In this document: piece after piece, positions 3,823 to 46,127 of the stretch | Layout: each line of letters begins with the position of its first letter | Numbering within the stretch: the first letter of the stretch is position 1 | Origin: Escherichia phage vb_EcoM_bov9_1 | Sequence record: MT884006.2 | Strand: one strand, 5' to 3' | Length of the DNA stretch: 64,000 nt | Program-made: the position numbers and the translations under genes | The notes under the pieces: generated by a model | The model's input: the letters and a program-made list of their open reading frames with translations, nothing else | The model's database searches: none | What the model was told of the DNA's origin: nothing

Positions 3823-3955
3823 AGTTTTGTGAAAAAATTTTTAAAAAGTTTTAGGGAATTCTAGGGTCAGGAGGGGCAATTAAAAGATAGGATAATATAT
3901 TATAAAGGGTAGAAACTAAATGATGCCTAGAGAGGCCCAGAAAGGCCTAGATACC

Positions 3956-3982
3956 AAAAAGTCCCAACCTTTCGGTTGGGGC
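3956..3982 (-). terminator. Intrinsic terminator (7 bp stem, GAAA loop, U-tract)
   Basis: Minus strand reads CCCAACC-GAAA-GGTTGGG followed by TTTTTGG; near-identical copy at 4512..4540. Confidence 0.65.
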
Positions 3983-3990
3983 TAAGAATG

Positions 3991-4464
3991 TTATTTGATT
4001 TGTTTAGCAGACCAAATGCGGTCTTTAATAATTTTTTGGATGTCTTCAACATACTCAAGAGAGTGAGCATGTGGGTTATCTTTGAAACTATGAGCTCGCG
4101 CAAGTTTCTGGCCTTCGGTCTTAATTATCAAAAGTTCTTTAAGAATTGCTTCATACCTAGAGATAATTCCTTTAGCAATATTTTTTTCTTGTGCTGCTTT
4201 AGGGTCAGCCTTAGGAGCAGGTTTACCTGAAGCCTTTGCAAAAGCAGCTCCAGTAGCAACTAAACTTTTCCAGGCCATACTAACTGCATTTCCCGTAAAT
4301 CCTTCCGCTTTCATGTCGCGTGCGAACTGGAATCGCGATTCATCAGAAGCATCTTTATAAGAATATTTACCCGCTGCAATGGCTGCTTTTGCGACAGCTT
4401 GAATTTCGGTGCTAGATGCTTCATTTAACACCGCTTCATTTAAAAATTGAGTATATGATTTCAT
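3991..4464 (-). CDS. Internal-protein-like (IPII/IPIII-like) with N-terminal capsid targeting sequence
   Basis: 158 aa product starts MKSYTQFLNEAVLNEA, resembling the T4 internal-protein CTS (MKTYQEFIAEA) with L-x-E prohead protease sites; basic Ala/Lys-rich body; AGGAAA SD before ATG at 4464. The ORF-track extension to 4641 would run through a terminator hairpin. Confidence 0.6.
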   Translation of the reverse strand: MKSYTQFLNEAVLNEASSTEIQAVAKAAIAAGKYSYKDASDESRFQFARDMKAEGFTGNAVSMAWKSLVATGAAFAKASGKPAPKADPKAAQEKNIAKGIISRYEAILKELLIIKTEGQKLARAHSFKDNPHAHSLEYVEDIQKIIKDRIWSAKQIK

Positions 4465-38195: not shown

Positions 38196-39761
38196 ATGAC
38201 TATCAAAACTAAAGCTGAACTTTTGAACAAATGGAAGCCATTACTGGAAGGTGAAGGTTTACCGGAAATTGCTAATAGCAAACAAGCGATTATCGCTAAA
38301 ATCTTTGAAAACCAGGAAAAAGATTTCCAGACAGCTCCGGAATATAAAGACGAAAAAATTGCTCAGGCATTCGGTTCTTTCTTAACAGAAGCTGAAATCG
38401 GTGGTGACCACGGTTACAATGCTACCAACATCGCCGCAGGTCAGACTTCTGGCGCAGTAACTCAGATTGGCCCAGCTGTTATGGGTATGGTACGTCGTGC
38501 TATTCCTAACCTGATTGCTTTCGATATTTGCGGTGTTCAGCCGATGAACAGCCCGACTGGTCAGGTATTCGCACTGCGCGCAGTATATGGTAAAGACCCA
38601 ATCGCTTCCGGCGCTAAAGAAGCATTCCACCCAATGTATGGTCCAGATGCAATGTTCTCTGGTCAGGGTGCTGCTAAGAAATTCGCTGCTTTGAAAGCAA
38701 GTGATACTCTTGAAGTCGGAACTATTTACACCCACTTCTTCCAGGACACTGGTACTGTGTATCTGCAAGCTACAGCAGCTAAACAAATTGATTCAGGTGC
38801 ATCTGACGCAGACAAATTAGATGCTGAAATTAAGAAACAAATGGAAGCTGGTGTACTGGTAGAAATCGCTGAAGGTATGGCTACTTCTATCGCTGAACTT
38901 CAAGAAGGTTTTAACGGTTCTACCGATAACCCGTGGAATGAAATGGGCTTCCGTATCGATAAACAAGTTATCGAAGCTAAATCTCGTCAGCTGAAAGCTG
39001 CTTACTCTATTGAATTAGCACAAGACCTCCGCGCTGTTCACGGTATGGATGCTGATGCTGAACTGTCTGGTATTCTGGCTACAGAAATTATGCTGGAAAT
39101 TAACCGTGAAGTTGTTGATTGGATTAACTACTCAGCTCAGGTTGGTAAATCTGGTATGACCCTGACTCCGGGTTCTAAAGCTGGTGTATTTGACTTCCAG
39201 GACCCAATCGATATTCGTGGTGCTCGCTGGGCAGGTGAATCCTTTAAAGCTCTGTTGTTCCAGATTGACAAAGAAGCAGTTGAAATTGCTCGTCAGACCG
39301 GTCGTGGTGAAGGTAACTTCATTATCGCTTCCCGTAACGTAGTTAACGTTCTGGCTTCAGTTGATACCGGCATTTCTTATGCTGCACAGGGTCTGGCTAC
39401 CGGCTTTAACACTGATACTACCAAGTCAGTATTTGCTGGTGTTCTGGGTGGTAAATACCGCGTATATATCGACCAGTATGCTAAACAGGATTATTTCACT
39501 GTAGGTTATAAAGGTCCGAACGAAATGGATGCTGGTATTTACTATGCTCCATATGTAGCTCTGACTCCGCTGCGTGGTTCCGATCCGAAGAACTTCCAAC
39601 CTGTAATGGGATTCAAAACTCGTTACGGTATCGGTATCAACCCATTTGCAGAATCCGCTGCTCAGGCTCCGGCTTCTCGCATCCAGAGCGGTATGCCTTC
39701 TATTCTGAATAGCCTTGGTAAAAACGCTTACTTCCGCCGTGTATATGTTAAAGGTATCTAA
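38196..39761 (+). CDS. 23: gp23 major capsid protein
   Basis: 521 aa starting MTIKTKAELLNKWKPLLEGEGLPEIANSKQAIIAKIFENQEKDFQTAPEYKDEKIAQAFGSFLTEAEIGG. Confidence 0.97.
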   Translation: MTIKTKAELLNKWKPLLEGEGLPEIANSKQAIIAKIFENQEKDFQTAPEYKDEKIAQAFGSFLTEAEIGGDHGYNATNIAAGQTSGAVTQIGPAVMGMVRRAIPNLIAFDICGVQPMNSPTGQVFALRAVYGKDPIASGAKEAFHPMYGPDAMFSGQGAAKKFAALKASDTLEVGTIYTHFFQDTGTVYLQATAAKQIDSGASDADKLDAEIKKQMEAGVLVEIAEGMATSIAELQEGFNGSTDNPWNEMGFRIDKQVIEAKSRQLKAAYSIELAQDLRAVHGMDADAELSGILATEIMLEINREVVDWINYSAQVGKSGMTLTPGSKAGVFDFQDPIDIRGARWAGESFKALLFQIDKEAVEIARQTGRGEGNFIIASRNVVNVLASVDTGISYAAQGLATGFNTDTTKSVFAGVLGGKYRVYIDQYAKQDYFTVGYKGPNEMDAGIYYAPYVALTPLRGSDPKNFQPVMGFKTRYGIGINPFAESAAQAPASRIQSGMPSILNSLGKNAYFRRVYVKGI

Positions 39762-39776
39762 TCTTTGACGATTTAA

Positions 39777-39805
39777 GGGACCTTCGGGTCCCTTTAGTTG
39801 TTTTT
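39777..39805 (+). terminator. Intrinsic terminator after gene 23
   Basis: GGGACC-TTCG-GGTCCC hairpin followed by a T-rich tract. Confidence 0.65.
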
Positions 39806-39809
39806 ATGG

Positions 39810-39817
39810 TATAAATA
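39810..39817 (+). promoter_or_regulatory. Late promoter TATAAATA for gene 24
   Basis: Exact TATAAATA 28 nt upstream of ATG at 39845. Confidence 0.7.
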
Positions 39818-39844
39818 AATCATATAAACCAAAAGGAAAGCGCA

Positions 39845-41128
39845 ATGGCTAAAATCAACGAACTTCTGCGCGAATCAACCACAACGAATAGCAACTCAAT
39901 CGGTCGCCCAAATCTCGTTGCTTTGACTCGCGCTACCACTAAATTAATATATTCTGACATTGTAGCAACGCAAAGAACTAATCAACCTGTTGCTGCTTTT
40001 TATGGTATCAAATACCTTAACCCAGACAATGAATTTACATTTAAAACTGGTGCTACTTACGCTGGCGAAGCTGGATATGTAGACCGAGAACAAATCACAG
40101 AATTAACAGAAGAGTCTAAATTAACTCTCAATAAAGGCGATTTATTCAAATATAATAACATCGTTTATAAAGTATTAGAAGATACTCCATTCGCTGATAT
40201 TGAAGAAAGCGACTTAGAGTTAGCTCTTCAGATTGCAATTGTTCTTTTAAAGGTTCGTCTATTTTCTGACGCAGCGTCAACAAGCAAATTTGAAAGCTCT
40301 GATAGTGAAATTGCGGATGCTAGATTTCAGATTAATAAATGGCAAACCGCGGTTAAATCTCGTAAACTTAAAACTGGTATCACAGTTGAATTAGCGCAAG
40401 ATTTAGAAGCAAATGGATTCGATGCTCCTAATTTCTTGGAAGATTTGCTTGCAACTGAAATGGCAGATGAAATCAATAAAGATATTCTGCAGTCTTTGAT
40501 TACAGTGTCAAAACGCTATAAAGTTACAGGAATTACTGATAGTGGATTCATCGATTTGAGTTATGCATCTGCACCTGAAGCGGGTCGTTCATTATATCGA
40601 ATGGTATGTGAAATGGTTTCGCATATCCAAAAAGAATCAACTTATACAGCAACGTTCTGTGTTGCTTCAGCTCGTGCCGCTGCGATTCTTGCTGCATCAG
40701 GTTGGTTAAAACATAAACCAGAAGATGATAAATATCTTTCACAAAATGCCTACGGGTTCTTAGCTAATGGTTTACCGCTTTATTGCGATACTAACAGCCC
40801 ATTAGATTATGTAATCGTTGGTGTAGTAGAAAATATCGGTGAAAAAGAAATTGTTGGATCAATTTTCTATGCTCCGTATACAGAAGGTCTTGACTTAGAT
40901 GACCCTGAACATGTAGGTGCATTTAAAGTTGTTGTTGATCCAGAAAGCTTACAACCGTCTATCGGTTTATTAGTTAGATATGCTTTATCAGCAAATCCTT
41001 ATACCGTAGCAAAAGATGAAAAAGAAGCAAGAATAATTGATGGTGGAGACATGGATAAAATGGCGGGTCGTTCAGATTTGTCTGTTTTATTAGGTGTTAA
41101 ATTACCAAAAATTATTATTGATGAATAA
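39845..41128 (+). CDS. 24: gp24 capsid vertex protein
   Basis: 427 aa gp23 paralogue in conserved order. Confidence 0.95.
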   Translation: MAKINELLRESTTTNSNSIGRPNLVALTRATTKLIYSDIVATQRTNQPVAAFYGIKYLNPDNEFTFKTGATYAGEAGYVDREQITELTEESKLTLNKGDLFKYNNIVYKVLEDTPFADIEESDLELALQIAIVLLKVRLFSDAASTSKFESSDSEIADARFQINKWQTAVKSRKLKTGITVELAQDLEANGFDAPNFLEDLLATEMADEINKDILQSLITVSKRYKVTGITDSGFIDLSYASAPEAGRSLYRMVCEMVSHIQKESTYTATFCVASARAAAILAASGWLKHKPEDDKYLSQNAYGFLANGLPLYCDTNSPLDYVIVGVVENIGEKEIVGSIFYAPYTEGLDLDDPEHVGAFKVVVDPESLQPSIGLLVRYALSANPYTVAKDEKEARIIDGGDMDKMAGRSDLSVLLGVKLPKIIIDE

Positions 41129-41134
41129 AACAAA

Positions 41135-41160
41135 GGGACCGAAAGGTCCCTTTTTATTTA
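41135..41160. terminator. Bidirectional intrinsic terminator between convergent genes 24 and rnlB
   Basis: GGGACC-GAAA-GGTCCC hairpin flanked by A-run upstream and T-run downstream. Confidence 0.65.
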
Positions 41161-42165
41161 GCTCACCAACTCAATCCAAGCTGGACGAAGTACATCTTGT
41201 ACCATTTTAACTAATTCCTTTTTAATCAAAGAAGGATTATCTGCTTGAGTTAGAGTAATACCTTCACGAGAAGTTTCTTCCAAAATATCTTGAACAGTTA
41301 GCCCCATCACCTTTCCAAAATCCTTTGGACCAATTTCGCCAATTTTAGAAATAACGTTATTTACGCGGTTTAGTGTAACGTAACAAGCTAAAATTCCAAC
41401 CAATTTGTTATCAGCTTCTGATAGTTCAACTTTAGCTTTAATAGGCTTATCAGACTTTTTCTTTTCACTAAATTTAGAGTTCTTGCATTTAATCGCTACA
41501 CGAGCACCGTTTGGCAGCCATTTAGGGAAACAAGGCTTCAGAACATAACCTTCTGCAGTATTATCACCAATAACATTAGCATCAAATACACAATTATTTG
41601 CTTCGACAAGGTCTTCCGATGCCGTAACGTTATAAGCGGCTAAGACGGAATCAAGGTCGTTTGGAATCATGATAAGAGCATCAAATGTTCCACGTCCAAG
41701 CATTGGTGCCATTTTAAAACCAAACGTATTACAGAAATCTTGCATTTCGTAATCACTCATGTAATAAGTATCACCGCTTTCCGTGTTTATGATGATATCG
41801 AATACATAGAAATCTTTTTCACCGTAGTCAACACCTTTCTGAATTCCACCACCAGCGAATTCACCAAAGACTTGATATGTCACCGGCACTGAAGTTGAAA
41901 TACTGTCCATGACTTCTTGAACGCCTTTAATAGCTTTATCATACTTTTTGAGTACTATTTCATAGCCATAAAAATCTTCAGCAGGAAGAATAGGACCAGT
42001 ACGTTTAGCGCAAGTCACTTTATCACGCTCAATAATCAACGAGAAATTTGTGCCGTGAATCTTTTCACGAGCTACCCATTCGCCGCCAGTCAATCCCAAG
42101 CTGTAAAGTTTTTCAATAAATTTAGAGTTGTAATGATTTTCAAGACTGCTATACTTTTTAAACAT
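41158..42165 (-). CDS. rnlB: RNA ligase 2
   Basis: 335 aa; nucleotidyltransferase motif I KIHGTN with the catalytic lysine, C-terminus closely matching T4 Rnl2. Confidence 0.9.
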
Positions 42166-42174
42166 AATTAATCC

Positions 42175-42453
42175 TCAAAATGTAATTTCTAACCAATCAC
42201 CATCACGCTGATCACTATTGACTTTAAAGCTAAATCCTTCTTTTCTAAGCCAATCACCAATTTCTTCAGTAATCAATTTATCGCGAGCAGTACAATAATA
42301 ACTAAAATGTGTTTTACCTTGTTCAGCTGCTTTATTAGCAAGTTCCGAAAAATCTTTAATAAAACACTCTAGCTTAAACTGTTTACTTTTAAGTGCTTTT
42401 TCGCGTAATTGATTAGCAAAAGATTCATTTTCATAAAGATCATACTGTTCCAT
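42175..42453 (-). CDS. Hypothetical protein
   Basis: 92 aa ORF upstream of rnlB, overlapping the preceding HTH ORF by 14 nt. Confidence 0.5.
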   Translation of the reverse strand: MEQYDLYENESFANQLREKALKSKQFKLECFIKDFSELANKAAEQGKTHFSYYCTARDKLITEEIGDWLRKEGFSFKVNSDQRDGDWLEITF

Positions 42454-42655
42454 TTTTCACCTTTTTATTGATATGTCTTTTTCTATAGACAACTTTTTCT
42501 CGAGTTTCAAATTTATTCTTAGCAGTCATAGCTCGAGCCCATAATACAGCCACTTCTTTTGCCTGTAAGTTTAATTCACGAGCAATTTCAATGAATGACT
42601 TTCCAGACTCATGAAGAGTAAACACCACAACCTCAGTTCTCATAATCAATCTCAT
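42440..42655 (-). CDS. Small helix-turn-helix protein
   Basis: 71 aa; segment HESGKSFIEIARELNLQAKEVAVLWARA resembles a sigma-70 region 4 / LuxR-type HTH; basic C-terminus. Confidence 0.45.
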   Translation of the reverse strand: MRLIMRTEVVVFTLHESGKSFIEIARELNLQAKEVAVLWARAMTAKNKFETREKVVYRKRHINKKVKNGTV

Positions 42656-42724
42656 GTTATCGAGTTGGTGCCATTATATACATCATTTTCTGATTGTGTT
42701 TTGTGTGCTTTCAAAATGAAGAAA

Positions 42725-42738
42725 GGGGCCGAAGCCCC
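42725..42738 (-). repeat. GGGGC-UUCG-GCCCC hairpin, copy 2 of 3
   Basis: Identical 14-mer, 7 nt after the hoc stop codon. Confidence 0.6.
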
Positions 42739-42744
42739 TTATGA

Positions 42745-43875
42745 TTATGGATAGGTATAGATGATACCAGTTTCTAAAGCAGTTTTATGAATGATATATC
42801 CATTACGCGATTCTTGGACATCAACTTCTGGATAGTCTTTCATCATCTTCTGAAGAGTGTAACGATGCAGGTAGTATTTACTATCTGGATCTTCAGTTTT
42901 CCAATCTTTACCTTCTTCAGTCATTTTTTGAATTTCATCCATAACCCACCAACCGCACCAGATGTAAGCTGAGCTACGGTGTGGAAGAGGATGAACATAA
43001 GGTAATTCACCTTCTGGTTCTGGAGCAACTTTATCAGTTACCTGAACTTGACCTTCTGCCGTAATAGTTTTGCTATCATAATCAGCAGCAGTAACAGTTG
43101 CAGTAACTTCAATAGTTTGACTTCCAATAGATGAGGTATCAACGGTATATACATTAGTTGACCCTTCTACAGGAGAAGAATCTTTCTTCCATGAATACTC
43201 AATTTGCGCTTCTTCTGGAGCATCAGTGACATTAGCAGTAAATGTAGCCGAAGCATCTTGTTGAACGTTAATAGAAGGAGGAGTCAATGTAACCTGTGGA
43301 TTCATTGTTTTCTTATTAACCGTTAATGATACTTCATTGGAAGTAACTTCCTTTTCATTGTAATTTTCAGCAGTTACTTGGGCTACGCATTTAATTCTTT
43401 TTACTCCACTTGTAGTTGGAGTATAGCTAAATGTAGAGTTAGTTTCTCCACCAACTTGTGAATCATCTACATACCACTGATACGTAGCAGATGCTCCATC
43501 AGGTTGAGAAACTAAGGCAGCGGTAAATTCAACAGCTGTTCCGATTACTCCAGCGTCAGGGCTATTAGGAGTTACAGCTAAGGTAGTCGTTTGTGTCTTA
43601 TTTTGAACTGTGATAGTTGTAGTAGCTTCTGCTGTTTCAGCATCAGTATCTGGAACTGTATTTGTTGCAACTACTTTAATAGTCTTTTGCCCAGCAGGTC
43701 CTTTTAATACATAATCAAAAGTTGCTTCAGCTCCATCTTGTGGAGCATCATCTACAGTCCAAGCATATGTAATAGTTCCGCCTCCAGTTTCACCACTGGG
43801 TGTAGCAGTAAACTGCTGAGTCTGATCTATAACTCCAGTAGGTGTTTTAGGAGTTATATCAACTGTAAAAGCCAT
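42745..43875 (-). CDS. hoc: Hoc, highly immunogenic outer capsid protein
   Basis: 376 aa with tandem Ig-like T/V-rich repeats and a conserved C-terminal capsid-binding region. Confidence 0.85.
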   Translation of the reverse strand: MAFTVDITPKTPTGVIDQTQQFTATPSGETGGGTITYAWTVDDAPQDGAEATFDYVLKGPAGQKTIKVVATNTVPDTDAETAEATTTITVQNKTQTTTLAVTPNSPDAGVIGTAVEFTAALVSQPDGASATYQWYVDDSQVGGETNSTFSYTPTTSGVKRIKCVAQVTAENYNEKEVTSNEVSLTVNKKTMNPQVTLTPPSINVQQDASATFTANVTDAPEEAQIEYSWKKDSSPVEGSTNVYTVDTSSIGSQTIEVTATVTAADYDSKTITAEGQVQVTDKVAPEPEGELPYVHPLPHRSSAYIWCGWWVMDEIQKMTEEGKDWKTEDPDSKYYLHRYTLQKMMKDYPEVDVQESRNGYIIHKTALETGIIYTYP

Positions 43876-43884
43876 AAGTTATCC

Positions 43885-44565
43885 TTATTTTAATGTTACG
43901 AAAGAAGAATTGCGTGTTTCACGAATTAAAACTGATCCATCACGATTAATGTAATAAATTAAGCTAAATAAAGTTTGGTGTGCTGACGCGTGCTCAAAAC
44001 TTGTTGGGTGAGATTTCCAATCCGGAGTTTCAGCAATCCATTGATAAATCCACCAAGGAACAGTGCAGAATCCTGGATTTTTTCCAATCAACTGAAGATT
44101 CGGACTAAAGTTTTCCGGAAGAGTAAATACAGACGGCCTTTCAGATTCAATAATCTCAGCTACAGCCTGTTCGAATTTTTCTTCAACAAAAGGAGTATCT
44201 TCAATCAAAACATCGGTATTTTCAGGAATTTTATCCGTTTCTACTACTTCAATTTTAATGTCAGATTTAACCGGAGAATCAATCAGAAGTGCTGCTTCTG
44301 GATTGACTTCTTCATCGTCATATTTTAACCCCTCTGCAGCATCAGCAGCATCAATTAAGTCTTTAATAGATAACCCATCAGTCTCCGGCATAGGTTCACT
44401 AGCGAGCTTCTGGAGGGCTTCTTCAATATCAACAACGATATTATCAAAAGATTTATTCTTTTTGACCTTTATACCAAACTGTTCAGCATATTCAGCTAAT
44501 TTAGCTTTAGCTTCTTTATTATCATCAAGAGCCTTCAGCTCTGCAATATAATCTTTATCTATCAT
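43885..44565 (-). CDS. inh: Inh-like, inhibitor of prohead protease
   Basis: 226 aa acidic protein immediately upstream of hoc. Confidence 0.55.
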   Translation of the reverse strand: MIDKDYIAELKALDDNKEAKAKLAEYAEQFGIKVKKNKSFDNIVVDIEEALQKLASEPMPETDGLSIKDLIDAADAAEGLKYDDEEVNPEAALLIDSPVKSDIKIEVVETDKIPENTDVLIEDTPFVEEKFEQAVAEIIESERPSVFTLPENFSPNLQLIGKNPGFCTVPWWIYQWIAETPDWKSHPTSFEHASAHQTLFSLIYYINRDGSVLIRETRNSSFVTLK

Positions 44566-44578
44566 AATATTTCCTCAG

Positions 44579-44586
44579 TATAAATA
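44579..44586 (+). promoter_or_regulatory. Late promoter TATAAATA for uvsW
   Basis: Exact TATAAATA 30 nt upstream of ATG at 44616. Confidence 0.6.
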
Positions 44587-44615
44587 TAGATATATTTATT
44601 ACATGGTATTTAGAC

Positions 44616-46127
44616 ATGACTGACATTAAAGTACATTTTTATGATTTTAGTCACGTGAGAATTGATTGTGAAGAAAGTACATTTCATGAACTCCGTGATT
44701 TCTTTAGCTTTGAAGCTGATGGGTATCGTTTTAATCCGAAATACAAATATGGCCACTGGGATGGACGAATCCGTCTTTTAGATTATAATCGTCTTCTTCC
44801 ATTCGGCTTAGTCGGGCAAATTAAAAAGTTCTGTGATAATTTTGGCTATAAAGCCTGGATTGACCCGCAAATTAACGAAAAAGAAGAATTATCAAGAAAA
44901 GATTTTGATGAATGGCTTTCTAAATTAGAAATCTATTCAGGAAATAAAAGAATTGAACCGCACTGGTATCAAAAAGATGCAGTGTTCGAAGGATTAGTTA
45001 ATCGTCGTAGAATTCTTAATCTTCCAACATCTGCAGGTAAATCTTTAATTCAAGCTTTGCTTGCGCGATATTATTTGGAAAATTATGAAGGTAAAATTCT
45101 TATCATTGTTCCAACAACTGCTCTGACAACTCAGATGGCTGATGACTTTGTTGATTATCGTTTATTCAGTCATGCAATGATAAAGAAAATCGGTGGCGGA
45201 GCATCAAAAGATGATAAATATAAAAATGATGCACCAGTCGTCGTTGGTACATGGCAAACTGTAGTTAAACAACCAAAAGAATGGTTCTCACAGTTTGGAA
45301 TGATGATGAATGATGAATGCCATCTTGCTACAGGAAAAAGTATTTCATCTATCATATCAGGTTTAAATAACTGTATGTTTAAATTTGGTCTATCTGGTTC
45401 ATTACGTGATGGCAAAGCCAATATCATGCAGTATGTTGGAATGTTTGGTGAAATATTTAAGCCAGTAACGACTTCTAAGTTAATGGAAGATGGACAAGTA
45501 ACTGAGCTAAAAATTAATAGTATTTTTCTTCGCTATCCCGATGAGTTCACTACTAAATTAAAGGGAAAAACTTATCAAGAAGAAATAAAAATTATTACTG
45601 GGCTTAGTAAAAGAAATAAATGGATCGCTAAATTAGCTATTAAGCTTGCGCAAAAAGATGAAAACGCTTTTGTCATGTTTAAACATGTATCACATGGTAA
45701 AGCTATTTTCGATTTAATTAAAAATGAATACGATAAAGTTTATTACGTATCAGGGGAAGTTGATACCGAAACCCGCAATATAATGAAAACCTTAGCTGAA
45801 AATGGTAAAGGAATAATTATAGTAGCTAGTTATGGTGTATTTTCTACTGGTATTTCAGTTAAAAATCTGCATCACGTTGTTTTAGCGCACGGTGTTAAAT
45901 CAAAAATCATTGTATTACAAACAATCGGTCGTGTATTACGTAAGCATGGTTCTAAGACAATAGCAACCGTCTGGGACCTCATAGATGATTGTGGCGTTAA
46001 GCCAAAATCTGCTAATACGAAAAAGAAATATGTTCATTTGAACTATCTTTTAAAACACGGCATTGATCGTATTCAGCGCTACGCAGATGAAAAATTTAAT
46101 TACGTAATGAAAACAGTTAATTTATAA
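44616..46127 (+). CDS. uvsW: UvsW SF2 helicase
   Basis: 503 aa; Walker A TSAGKS and DEAH-like MNDECH motifs. Confidence 0.9.
   Translation: MTDIKVHFYDFSHVRIDCEESTFHELRDFFSFEADGYRFNPKYKYGHWDGRIRLLDYNRLLPFGLVGQIKKFCDNFGYKAWIDPQINEKEELSRKDFDEWLSKLEIYSGNKRIEPHWYQKDAVFEGLVNRRRILNLPTSAGKSLIQALLARYYLENYEGKILIIVPTTALTTQMADDFVDYRLFSHAMIKKIGGGASKDDKYKNDAPVVVGTWQTVVKQPKEWFSQFGMMMNDECHLATGKSISSIISGLNNCMFKFGLSGSLRDGKANIMQYVGMFGEIFKPVTTSKLMEDGQVTELKINSIFLRYPDEFTTKLKGKTYQEEIKIITGLSKRNKWIAKLAIKLAQKDENAFVMFKHVSHGKAIFDLIKNEYDKVYYVSGEVDTETRNIMKTLAENGKGIIIVASYGVFSTGISVKNLHHVVLAHGVKSKIIVLQTIGRVLRKHGSKTIATVWDLIDDCGVKPKSANTKKKYVHLNYLLKHGIDRIQRYADEKFNYVMKTVNL

Follow-up and report, generated by a model that had tools for sequence, protein, structure and literature searches.

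In Escherichia phage vb_EcoM_bov9_1, the two small open reading frames (ORFs) that precede rnlB, the gene for RNA ligase 2 (Rnl2), are genes 24.3 and 24.2 of phage T4, and together with rnlB they form one compact three-gene operon inside the late head-gene cluster. Our favoured reading, to which we assign a probability of about 0.4, is that this operon is an early accessory unit in which 24.3 would encode a basic, nucleic-acid-binding helix-turn-helix (HTH) protein and 24.2 an adaptor associated with Rnl2. The DNA analysed was a 64,000-nt stretch of sequence record MT884006.2, called the window below. Its content at this locus is the same as in hundreds of deposited genomes; both are long-catalogued T4 genes, and the finding is real but ordinary. 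A search of the full-text literature found nothing on DUF2774, the family of the 24.3 product, or on gp24.2 or gp24.3 themselves.

Identity of the two genes

A 1.7-kb stretch of the window is 100% identical to Escherichia phage vb_EcoM_bov10K1 and 98-99% identical to many other Tequatrovirus genomes, with 721 phage records matching; the window is Tequatrovirus DNA. The gene order in T4 is the same: hoc, 24.3, 24.2, rnlB and then gene 24 on the opposite strand. T4 gp24.3 is an orthologue, the window DNA being identical over the aligned stretch except for one 33-nt gap in T4, and so is T4 gp24.2, which is 96-99% identical to the common Tequatrovirus form and has the same position and the same 14-nt overlap with its neighbour.

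Profile searches agree with this assignment. The 71-aa ORF belongs to DUF2774 (PF11242; 107.5 bits against a cut-off of 29.2, 3.9e-31), with its residues 5-68 aligned to profile positions 1-63 of 63, and it matches phrog_1566 at 8e-33. The 92-aa product is a member of the 24.2 family by its match to phrog_2416 (3.5e-41) and by a position orthologous to that of T4 24.2, and PF26862 is precomputed for two 24.2 homologues (P0007 and P0008, 96-98% identical). The product of the third gene is an Rnl2, matching Pfam RNA_ligase (PF09414) at 4.6e-23, T4_Rnl2_C (PF18043) at 7e-24 and phrog_548 at 1e-132, and it carries the KxxG lysine motif as EKIHGTN.

Both small ORFs are real genes rather than chance ORFs, because they are widely conserved (by tblastn, 1079 phage records contain 24.3 and 699 contain 24.2), show a dN/dS of ~0.17 and are covered by the T4 expression data described below. 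The dN/dS value was obtained for both genes against a Mosigvirus and is rough, since dS is saturated. In the same comparison dN was 0.29 for 24.3, 0.42 for 24.2 and 0.08 for rnlB, with amino-acid identities of 62%, 54% and 88% respectively. Taken with that rough figure, the comparison suggests purifying selection on 24.3 and 24.2 combined with fast protein divergence.

Set against T4 locus L001, the window phage lacks the homing endonuclease genes segD and segE (39761-39845 and 44565-44616 in the window), which in T4 lie between genes 23 and 24 and between inh and uvsW respectively.

Layout of the operon

The 71-aa ORF (42655..42440) and the 92-aa ORF (42453..42175) are both on the minus strand and overlap by 14 nt (ATGGAACAGTATGA); rnlB, a 335-aa ORF at 41158..42165 on the same strand, is the third cistron and starts 9 nt past the 24.2 stop. 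A Shine-Dalgarno sequence, AAGGTG, stands 4-5 nt before the 24.2 ATG, and that of rnlB, GAGGA, overlaps the 24.2 stop codon. The upstream boundary of the operon is marked by an intrinsic terminator 3' of hoc (42723..42740, minus strand; AAGGGGCTTCGGCCCCTT followed by a T-rich tail), of which T4 has an identical copy, and the downstream boundary by a bidirectional hairpin terminator where genes 24 and rnlB converge (41132..41153), which the terminator scan found on both strands. The tight packing (14-nt overlap, 9-nt gap) and the terminators at both ends make the three genes one compact unit. An Rfam scan of 40900-43000 gave no match near threshold. The preliminary description had placed both ORFs before rnlB on one strand with a 14-nt overlap, and these coordinates are confirmed. 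It had also called the two ORFs operon partners of rnlB, a view that is borne out by the packing, by the two intrinsic terminators and by joint early expression in T4.

The true start of 24.3 is probably the second ATG of the ORF, at 42643, which gives a coding sequence of 67 aa (42643..42440). Three observations argue for it: the DUF2774 profile begins at residue 5, the T4 RefSeq and a re-annotated T4 genome both use that start, and homologues in other genera begin there. A TATAAT read from the sequence at 42673..42678 on the minus strand, 30 nt ahead of the start codon at 42643, is a putative -10 element; as such it would leave a leader of only ~11 nt before the first ATG.

The T4 RefSeq copy of 24.3 lacks 33 nt inside the gene (window 42508-42540, minus strand; ~3950-4000 in T4 locus L001) and so encodes 56 aa. 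The missing 11 codons (RAMTAKNKFET) fill the exact interval from one CTCGAG (XhoI) site to the next. The 67-aa form is found in the window, in most Tequatrovirus records and in the re-annotated laboratory T4 (204 nt); besides the window, ~400 records have it. The gap is either the loss of a tiny XhoI fragment in an old assembly or, in certain T4 stocks, a genuine deletion between repeats of 6 bp.

Expression and dispensability

In T4, rnlB, 24.2 and 24.3 are all classed as 'early RNA / middle protein' from transcriptome and proteome data (PMC9697503 supplement), and this shared class shows that all three are expressed, and expressed together. We compared the sequences upstream of DUF2774 in loci L005, L007, L010, L002, L019 and L015-L018 with window 42656-42745. 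In several genera a MotA box (TTTGCTT) overlaps the tail of the hoc terminator and is followed by a -10; Dhakavirus-like phages have GTTTAC, 17 nt and TAAGAT, a T4-type early promoter; in T4, Mosigvirus and the window there is TATAAT alone, and neither a good -35 nor a MotA box was found upstream of 24.3. The unit is thus pre-replicative across genera, through differing promoter types.

T4 does not need 24.3, 24.2 or rnlB to grow on laboratory E. coli K-12. Transposon sequencing of T4 by HIDEN-SEQ found insertions at every TA site of the three genes (14 in 24.3, 23 in 24.2 and 84 in rnlB) and puts all three in the non-essential class (bioRxiv 10.1101/2025.11.20.689424 supplement), and their orthologues in phage Bas37 showed no significant depletion (bioRxiv 10.1101/2025.11.20.689424). 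None of the three is named among the genes conditionally essential with RexAB, RnlAB, CBASS, DarTG1 or DarTG2. The preliminary description had held that dispensability of both ORFs, with no effect on rnlB expression, would speak against its reading; as far as laboratory growth goes, the T4 transposon sequencing finds them dispensable.

A helix-turn-helix protein with an invariant basic tail

The predicted structure of gp24.3 has an N-terminal three-helix HTH, and its last helix is long and basic and carries the sequence EKVVYRKR. The top single structural match is a LuxR-type DNA-binding domain, with other LuxR/FixJ regulators also matching, and most of the best matches are sigma region 4 domains, several of them solved with anti-sigma factors. 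By its model, the protein thus has the HTH fold of the LuxR/GerE DNA-binding domain. Family membership by sequence is another matter: gp24.3 scored 18.2 bits (E 0.002) against GerE (PF00196; cut-off 23.5), 13.1 bits (E 0.08) against Sigma70_r4_2 (cut-off 25.7) and 12.7 bits against TIGR02937 (cut-off 42.9). Other weak profile matches, to an ECF sigma region 4.2 in PDB (0.0024) and to an IS21-type transposase HTH, are also below curated cut-offs, and a sequence search of solved structures returned only generic HTH and designed-protein matches. The preliminary call of a sigma-70 region 4 / LuxR-like HTH in the 71-aa ORF is hence upheld for the fold, through the structural matches, and falls short for sequence membership in GerE or Sigma70_r4_2. 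A sigma-70 family sigma factor was considered and rejected: at 67 aa the protein has no regions 2 and 3, and only its fold resembles region 4.

The family consists of small proteins and is, in these searches, confined to phages. A DUF2774 profile search gave 116 relatives, all of 55-127 aa, single-domain and from T4-like phages, with no fused domain in any of them; no bacterial or archaeal relative turned up in 185,579 genomes. Among 51 diverse members the conserved positions fall in two groups: E12, F17, I20 and A21 are structural residues of the HTH, and E49, V52, Y53, R54, K55 and R56 make up the EKVVYRKR motif of the basic tail. Residues 28-45, the putative recognition helix, are variable, alanine-rich and hydrophobic, and few of them are polar.

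From these data we infer that gp24.3 is a free-standing HTH of the LuxR/sigma-region-4 type with a family-invariant basic tail. It differs from LuxR/FixJ (GerE) proteins in having no receiver domain and from sigma-70 in having no region 2 or 3, and from both in the EKVVYRKR motif on its long basic last helix, which is specific to DUF2774. The protein is strongly basic (pI 10.3, with a family median of 10.1), and +6 of its net charge of +8 is in the tail; because the charge sits mostly there, the tail motif most likely binds nucleic acid. The functional centre of gp24.3 is probably this invariant tail and not the variable 'recognition' helix. Whether binding would be to specific DNA sequences is uncertain, given the family scores below cut-off and the variable, alanine-rich recognition helix.

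A small acidic alpha/beta protein

The model of gp24.2 (pLDDT 77) has a helix at 12-44, a strand at 49-53, a second helix at 59-72 and a hairpin at 75-81/85-91, in other words a predicted long N-terminal helix followed by beta-alpha-beta-beta. Its fold matches are to R3H (7.0 and 6.9), Pop7/Alba (6.0) and KhpB/Jag (5.7), with sequence identities of 3-16%. In BFVD, all matches are uncharacterised proteins of 80-95 aa from T4-like and some other phages, and several phages, e.g. phiAS5 and Aeh1, have more than one gp24.2-like protein. No match for 24.2 was found in NCBIfam, PADLOC or a Pfam copy that lacks PF26862. When 1.84 billion representative proteins were searched exhaustively, four relatives came up; in all, the single-sequence searches of large protein sets run for this locus gave only 6, 3 and 4 relatives, the four being those just named.

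Only one residue is invariant in a 19-member alignment of the family, a glycine at the end of the long helix; conservation is also seen at hydrophobic positions, at turns and at a C-terminal aromatic. Neither R-x3-H nor the Smr motifs occur in the alignment, and it has no His, Asp or Cys that is conserved. Assignments to the R3H domain (in which R-x3-H is expected) and to the Smr domain (in which the nuclease motifs are) were rejected on these grounds. Compared with the small alpha/beta nucleic-acid-binding domains of the R3H, Smr and Alba/Pop7 types, to which its identity is 7-16%, gp24.2 is acidic instead of basic (pI 5.0; family median 6.2) and has an additional long N-terminal helix, and its acidity weakens the case for RNA binding that the fold might suggest. 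Most simply, the model is that of a non-catalytic alpha/beta binding protein.

The 24.2 homologues of Kanagawa- and Marfavirus-like phages have an N-terminal extension of 30-50 aa with a conserved RRIQGWDE(A/S)G(H/Q)PIGGLK (L004 2833-3186 and L006 2782-3153; also L022, L025, L044 and L073).

Gene 24.2, and not 24.3, follows rnlB

Gene neighbourhoods were compared across 145 loci. We collected these with probes for DUF2774, Rnl2 and 24.2, both from IMG/VR contigs and from annotated phage records, and labelled their ORFs with local HMMs. Seven arrangements recurred. Tequatro-, Mosig-, Kanagawa-, Marfa- and Winklervirus have hoc, DUF2774, 24.2 and rnlB. Moon- and Gelderlandvirus and the group of Klebsiella phage Roth77 have DUF2774, a 117-aa 'VGDKNQ' protein, 24.2, rnlB and a DprA/SLOG-like gene, and Krischvirus has DUF2774, VGDKNQ and the SLOG-like gene without 24.2 and rnlB. 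Dhakavirus-like phages have DUF2774, a gap of ~115 nt and rnlB, without 24.2. The order is inverted in Gualtarvirus-like phages: two or three other genes follow DUF2774, then comes rnlB, and a 24.2-like gene overlaps its stop. In T4-like phages of 183-225 kb, one or two 24.2-like genes come directly after rnlB, with DUF2774 absent or >2 kb off, and RB43-like phages have rnlB, the SLOG-like gene and a longer protein with weak 24.2 similarity.

In this sample, which comes from one virus family with conserved gene order and was drawn through DUF2774 and Rnl2, a same-strand 24.2-like gene is present in 46 of the 86 non-identical Rnl2 loci and lies ≤150 nt from rnlB, on either side, in 40 of those 46. 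It is upstream of rnlB in Tevenvirinae, and downstream, often overlapping it, in the Gualtarvirus-like and 183-225 kb phages. The two types are related: an HMM built from upstream-type 24.2 only recovered the downstream type at E 1e-5 to 1e-2, with no unrelated matches at that level among 6404 ORFs. Of the 40 loci with both DUF2774 and 24.2, the two abut in 22 and are split by another gene in 18, and nine loci have DUF2774 and rnlB without 24.2. The complete RB49 genome has DUF2774 (5e-21), and in it we found neither Rnl2 (best E 0.086) nor a 24.2 member (best E 0.046).

These comparisons are evidence that it is 24.2, rather than 24.3, that goes with rnlB in both occurrence and location. DUF2774 appears independent of Rnl2, as it persists in RB49 without the ligase, and the 24.3-24.2 pair is, in these gene orders, not a fixed unit. 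The preliminary description had proposed the operon partners of rnlB as candidate regulators or specificity factors; with 24.2 tracking rnlB and DUF2774 persisting where Rnl2 is absent, a specificity factor for Rnl2 is possible for 24.2 only. Rnl2 for its part does not need 24.2, since at this locus Dhakavirus-like phages have retained rnlB but no 24.2. The adjacency of 24.2 and rnlB may also reflect shared ancestry, because all the genomes sampled belong to one family with strong synteny, and 24.2-like paralogues are located away from rnlB as well in some genomes.

Other small genes come and go at this locus. A gene of 181-195 aa with weak DprA similarity (PF02481), annotated as YspA SLOG family or DprA-like, directly follows rnlB in many T4-like genera (L002 5919-6467, L004 4299-4844, L009 4165-4752 and many other loci); it is kept in Krischvirus without rnlB and absent from T4 and the window. 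The VGDKNQ family (108-145 aa, no Pfam match, motif VGDKNQFEI ... VPSD) stands between DUF2774 and 24.2 in several genera, where its translation is coupled to that of DUF2774 (L005 2408-2761, L007 3240-3596, L002 4204-4530, L009 3314-3751). On contig L019 (5998-6579) VGDKNQ is fused in frame to DUF2774 in a 193-aa ORF; this could be an artefact of frameshift or sequencing, or else point to joint action of the two. The Gualtarvirus-like genes between DUF2774 and rnlB (L008 3229-4479, L035 6156-6785, L038 6156-6797) are mutual paralogues with a repeated E(Y/F)(H/Q)DWL(K/R)(E/S)N...LEVKY motif, of which one 214-aa protein has two copies.

Alternative readings

The preliminary description had likened the two genes to a toxin-antitoxin-like module. 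With 24.3 as HTH antitoxin and the 92-aa protein as toxin, only the layout speaks for this (the short HTH gene overlaps a second short gene downstream), and we give the idea hardly any credence. There is no match to a toxin, antitoxin or defence family in Pfam, NCBIfam or PADLOC; the 24.2 family has no conserved catalytic residues, a glycine being the sole invariant position; another gene splits the pair at 18 of 40 loci, 24.2 is missing in nine, and RB49 has DUF2774 alone; and the phage is strictly lytic. As for type II systems, neither a recognisable domain nor an inseparable adjacent pair was found. Insertions throughout 24.3 are tolerated in T4, an argument limited by possible polarity on 24.2. 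The likeness was accordingly dropped. Two other proposals give gp24.3 a part in transcription, and both are unlikely. It might mimic sigma region 4 through protein contacts in place of DNA binding, competing for the beta-flap of RNA polymerase or titrating a binder of region 4 such as AsiA or Rsd. T4-type phages remodel sigma70 region 4 through AsiA and MotA, which fits such a role, as do the prevalence of sigma region 4 among the best structural matches, several with anti-sigma factors, and a recognition helix that is variable and poor in polar DNA-contacting residues, with the invariant motif outside it. The top single match is however a LuxR-type DNA-binding domain, Sigma70_r4_2 scores only 13.1 bits against 25.7, and the strongly basic tail favours nucleic-acid binding. 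Just as slim is the chance that gp24.3 is a transcriptional auto-regulator of 24.2 and rnlB, acting at an operator in the hoc-24.3 intergenic region. The HTH fold and the place of 24.3 as first cistron, just downstream of the promoter region, are what one would expect of such a regulator, yet no conserved operator-like element or repeat was seen upstream of DUF2774 in the compared genera, which weakly disfavours a conserved auto-regulatory site; moreover, the promoter type varies between genera, and DUF2774 persists in RB49 without 24.2 and rnlB.

The main rival, which we consider quite possible, is that the two products are unrelated, fast-evolving accessory proteins, for instance in host takeover or anti-defence, that merely share an early unit with rnlB, their adjacency being a matter of ancestry. 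Much of the above is in keeping with it. Both genes are non-essential, phage-restricted and diverging 4-5 times faster than rnlB; the locus, set between head genes, gains and loses small genes (the VGDKNQ family, the DprA/SLOG-like gene and others); 24.2-like paralogues occur elsewhere in some genomes; and Dhakavirus-like phages have Rnl2 without 24.2. Two patterns fit it less well: 24.2-like genes adjoin rnlB also in the loci of inverted order, with DUF2774 1.6-2.3 kb off, and 24.2 and rnlB are jointly absent from RB49.

The DUF2774 gene of Klebsiella phage Roth77 (PQ657821.1; L002 3977-4204) is labelled 'anti-TA protein alt3', and uvsW of the same phage is labelled 'U3 small nucleolar RNA-associated SSU processome protein 25'; both labels appear to be automatic transfers. 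The alt3 name traces to T4 Alt.-3 (96 aa), extended mutants of which block CmdTAC (PMC11618068). The alt3 label was discarded, hhalign giving Alt.-3 a probability of 1.2% against DUF2774 and 0.2% against 24.2.

A possible accessory unit for RNA repair

In the favoured reading, the RNA of the 24.3-24.2-rnlB unit would be made early and, as in T4, its proteins would accumulate at middle times. As a basic HTH protein, gp24.3 would bind nucleic acid through its invariant EKVVYRKR tail, and its gene would head the operon in nearly all T4-like genera independently of Rnl2. Most likely, gp24.2 would be a non-catalytic accessory or adaptor acting with Rnl2, and not a partner of the HTH protein. The unit as a whole would then be an accessory, fast-evolving cassette for host interaction or RNA repair, and not a toxin-antitoxin module.

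A narrower version, that gp24.2 is a dedicated partner of Rnl2, either an adaptor that selects or presents the broken RNA sealed by Rnl2 in vivo or a shield of Rnl2 against a host factor, is doubtful. It has a functional analogy in the trypanosome ligases REL1 and REL2, which are of the Rnl2 family and have the OB-fold proteins KREPA2 and KREPA1 as accessory partners: there too, a small non-catalytic protein may be seen as encoded or assembled with an Rnl2-type ligase. The analogy would stop at function, as no fold relation between gp24.2 and the OB-fold KREPA proteins is expected, and T4 Rnl2 has a C-terminal nick-sensing domain of its own.

What the analysis adds to the catalogued genes is support for the HTH fold, a non-catalytic alpha/beta fold for gp24.2, the tie between 24.2 and rnlB, and evidence against a toxin-antitoxin module. 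If the partnership between gp24.2 and Rnl2 is true, the 24.2 family would mark Rnl2-based RNA repair across T4-like phages, and would offer a genetic handle on the biological role of Rnl2 and a direct route to its in vivo substrate; otherwise, 24.3 and 24.2 would be two more small, fast-evolving, dispensable accessory genes of T4.
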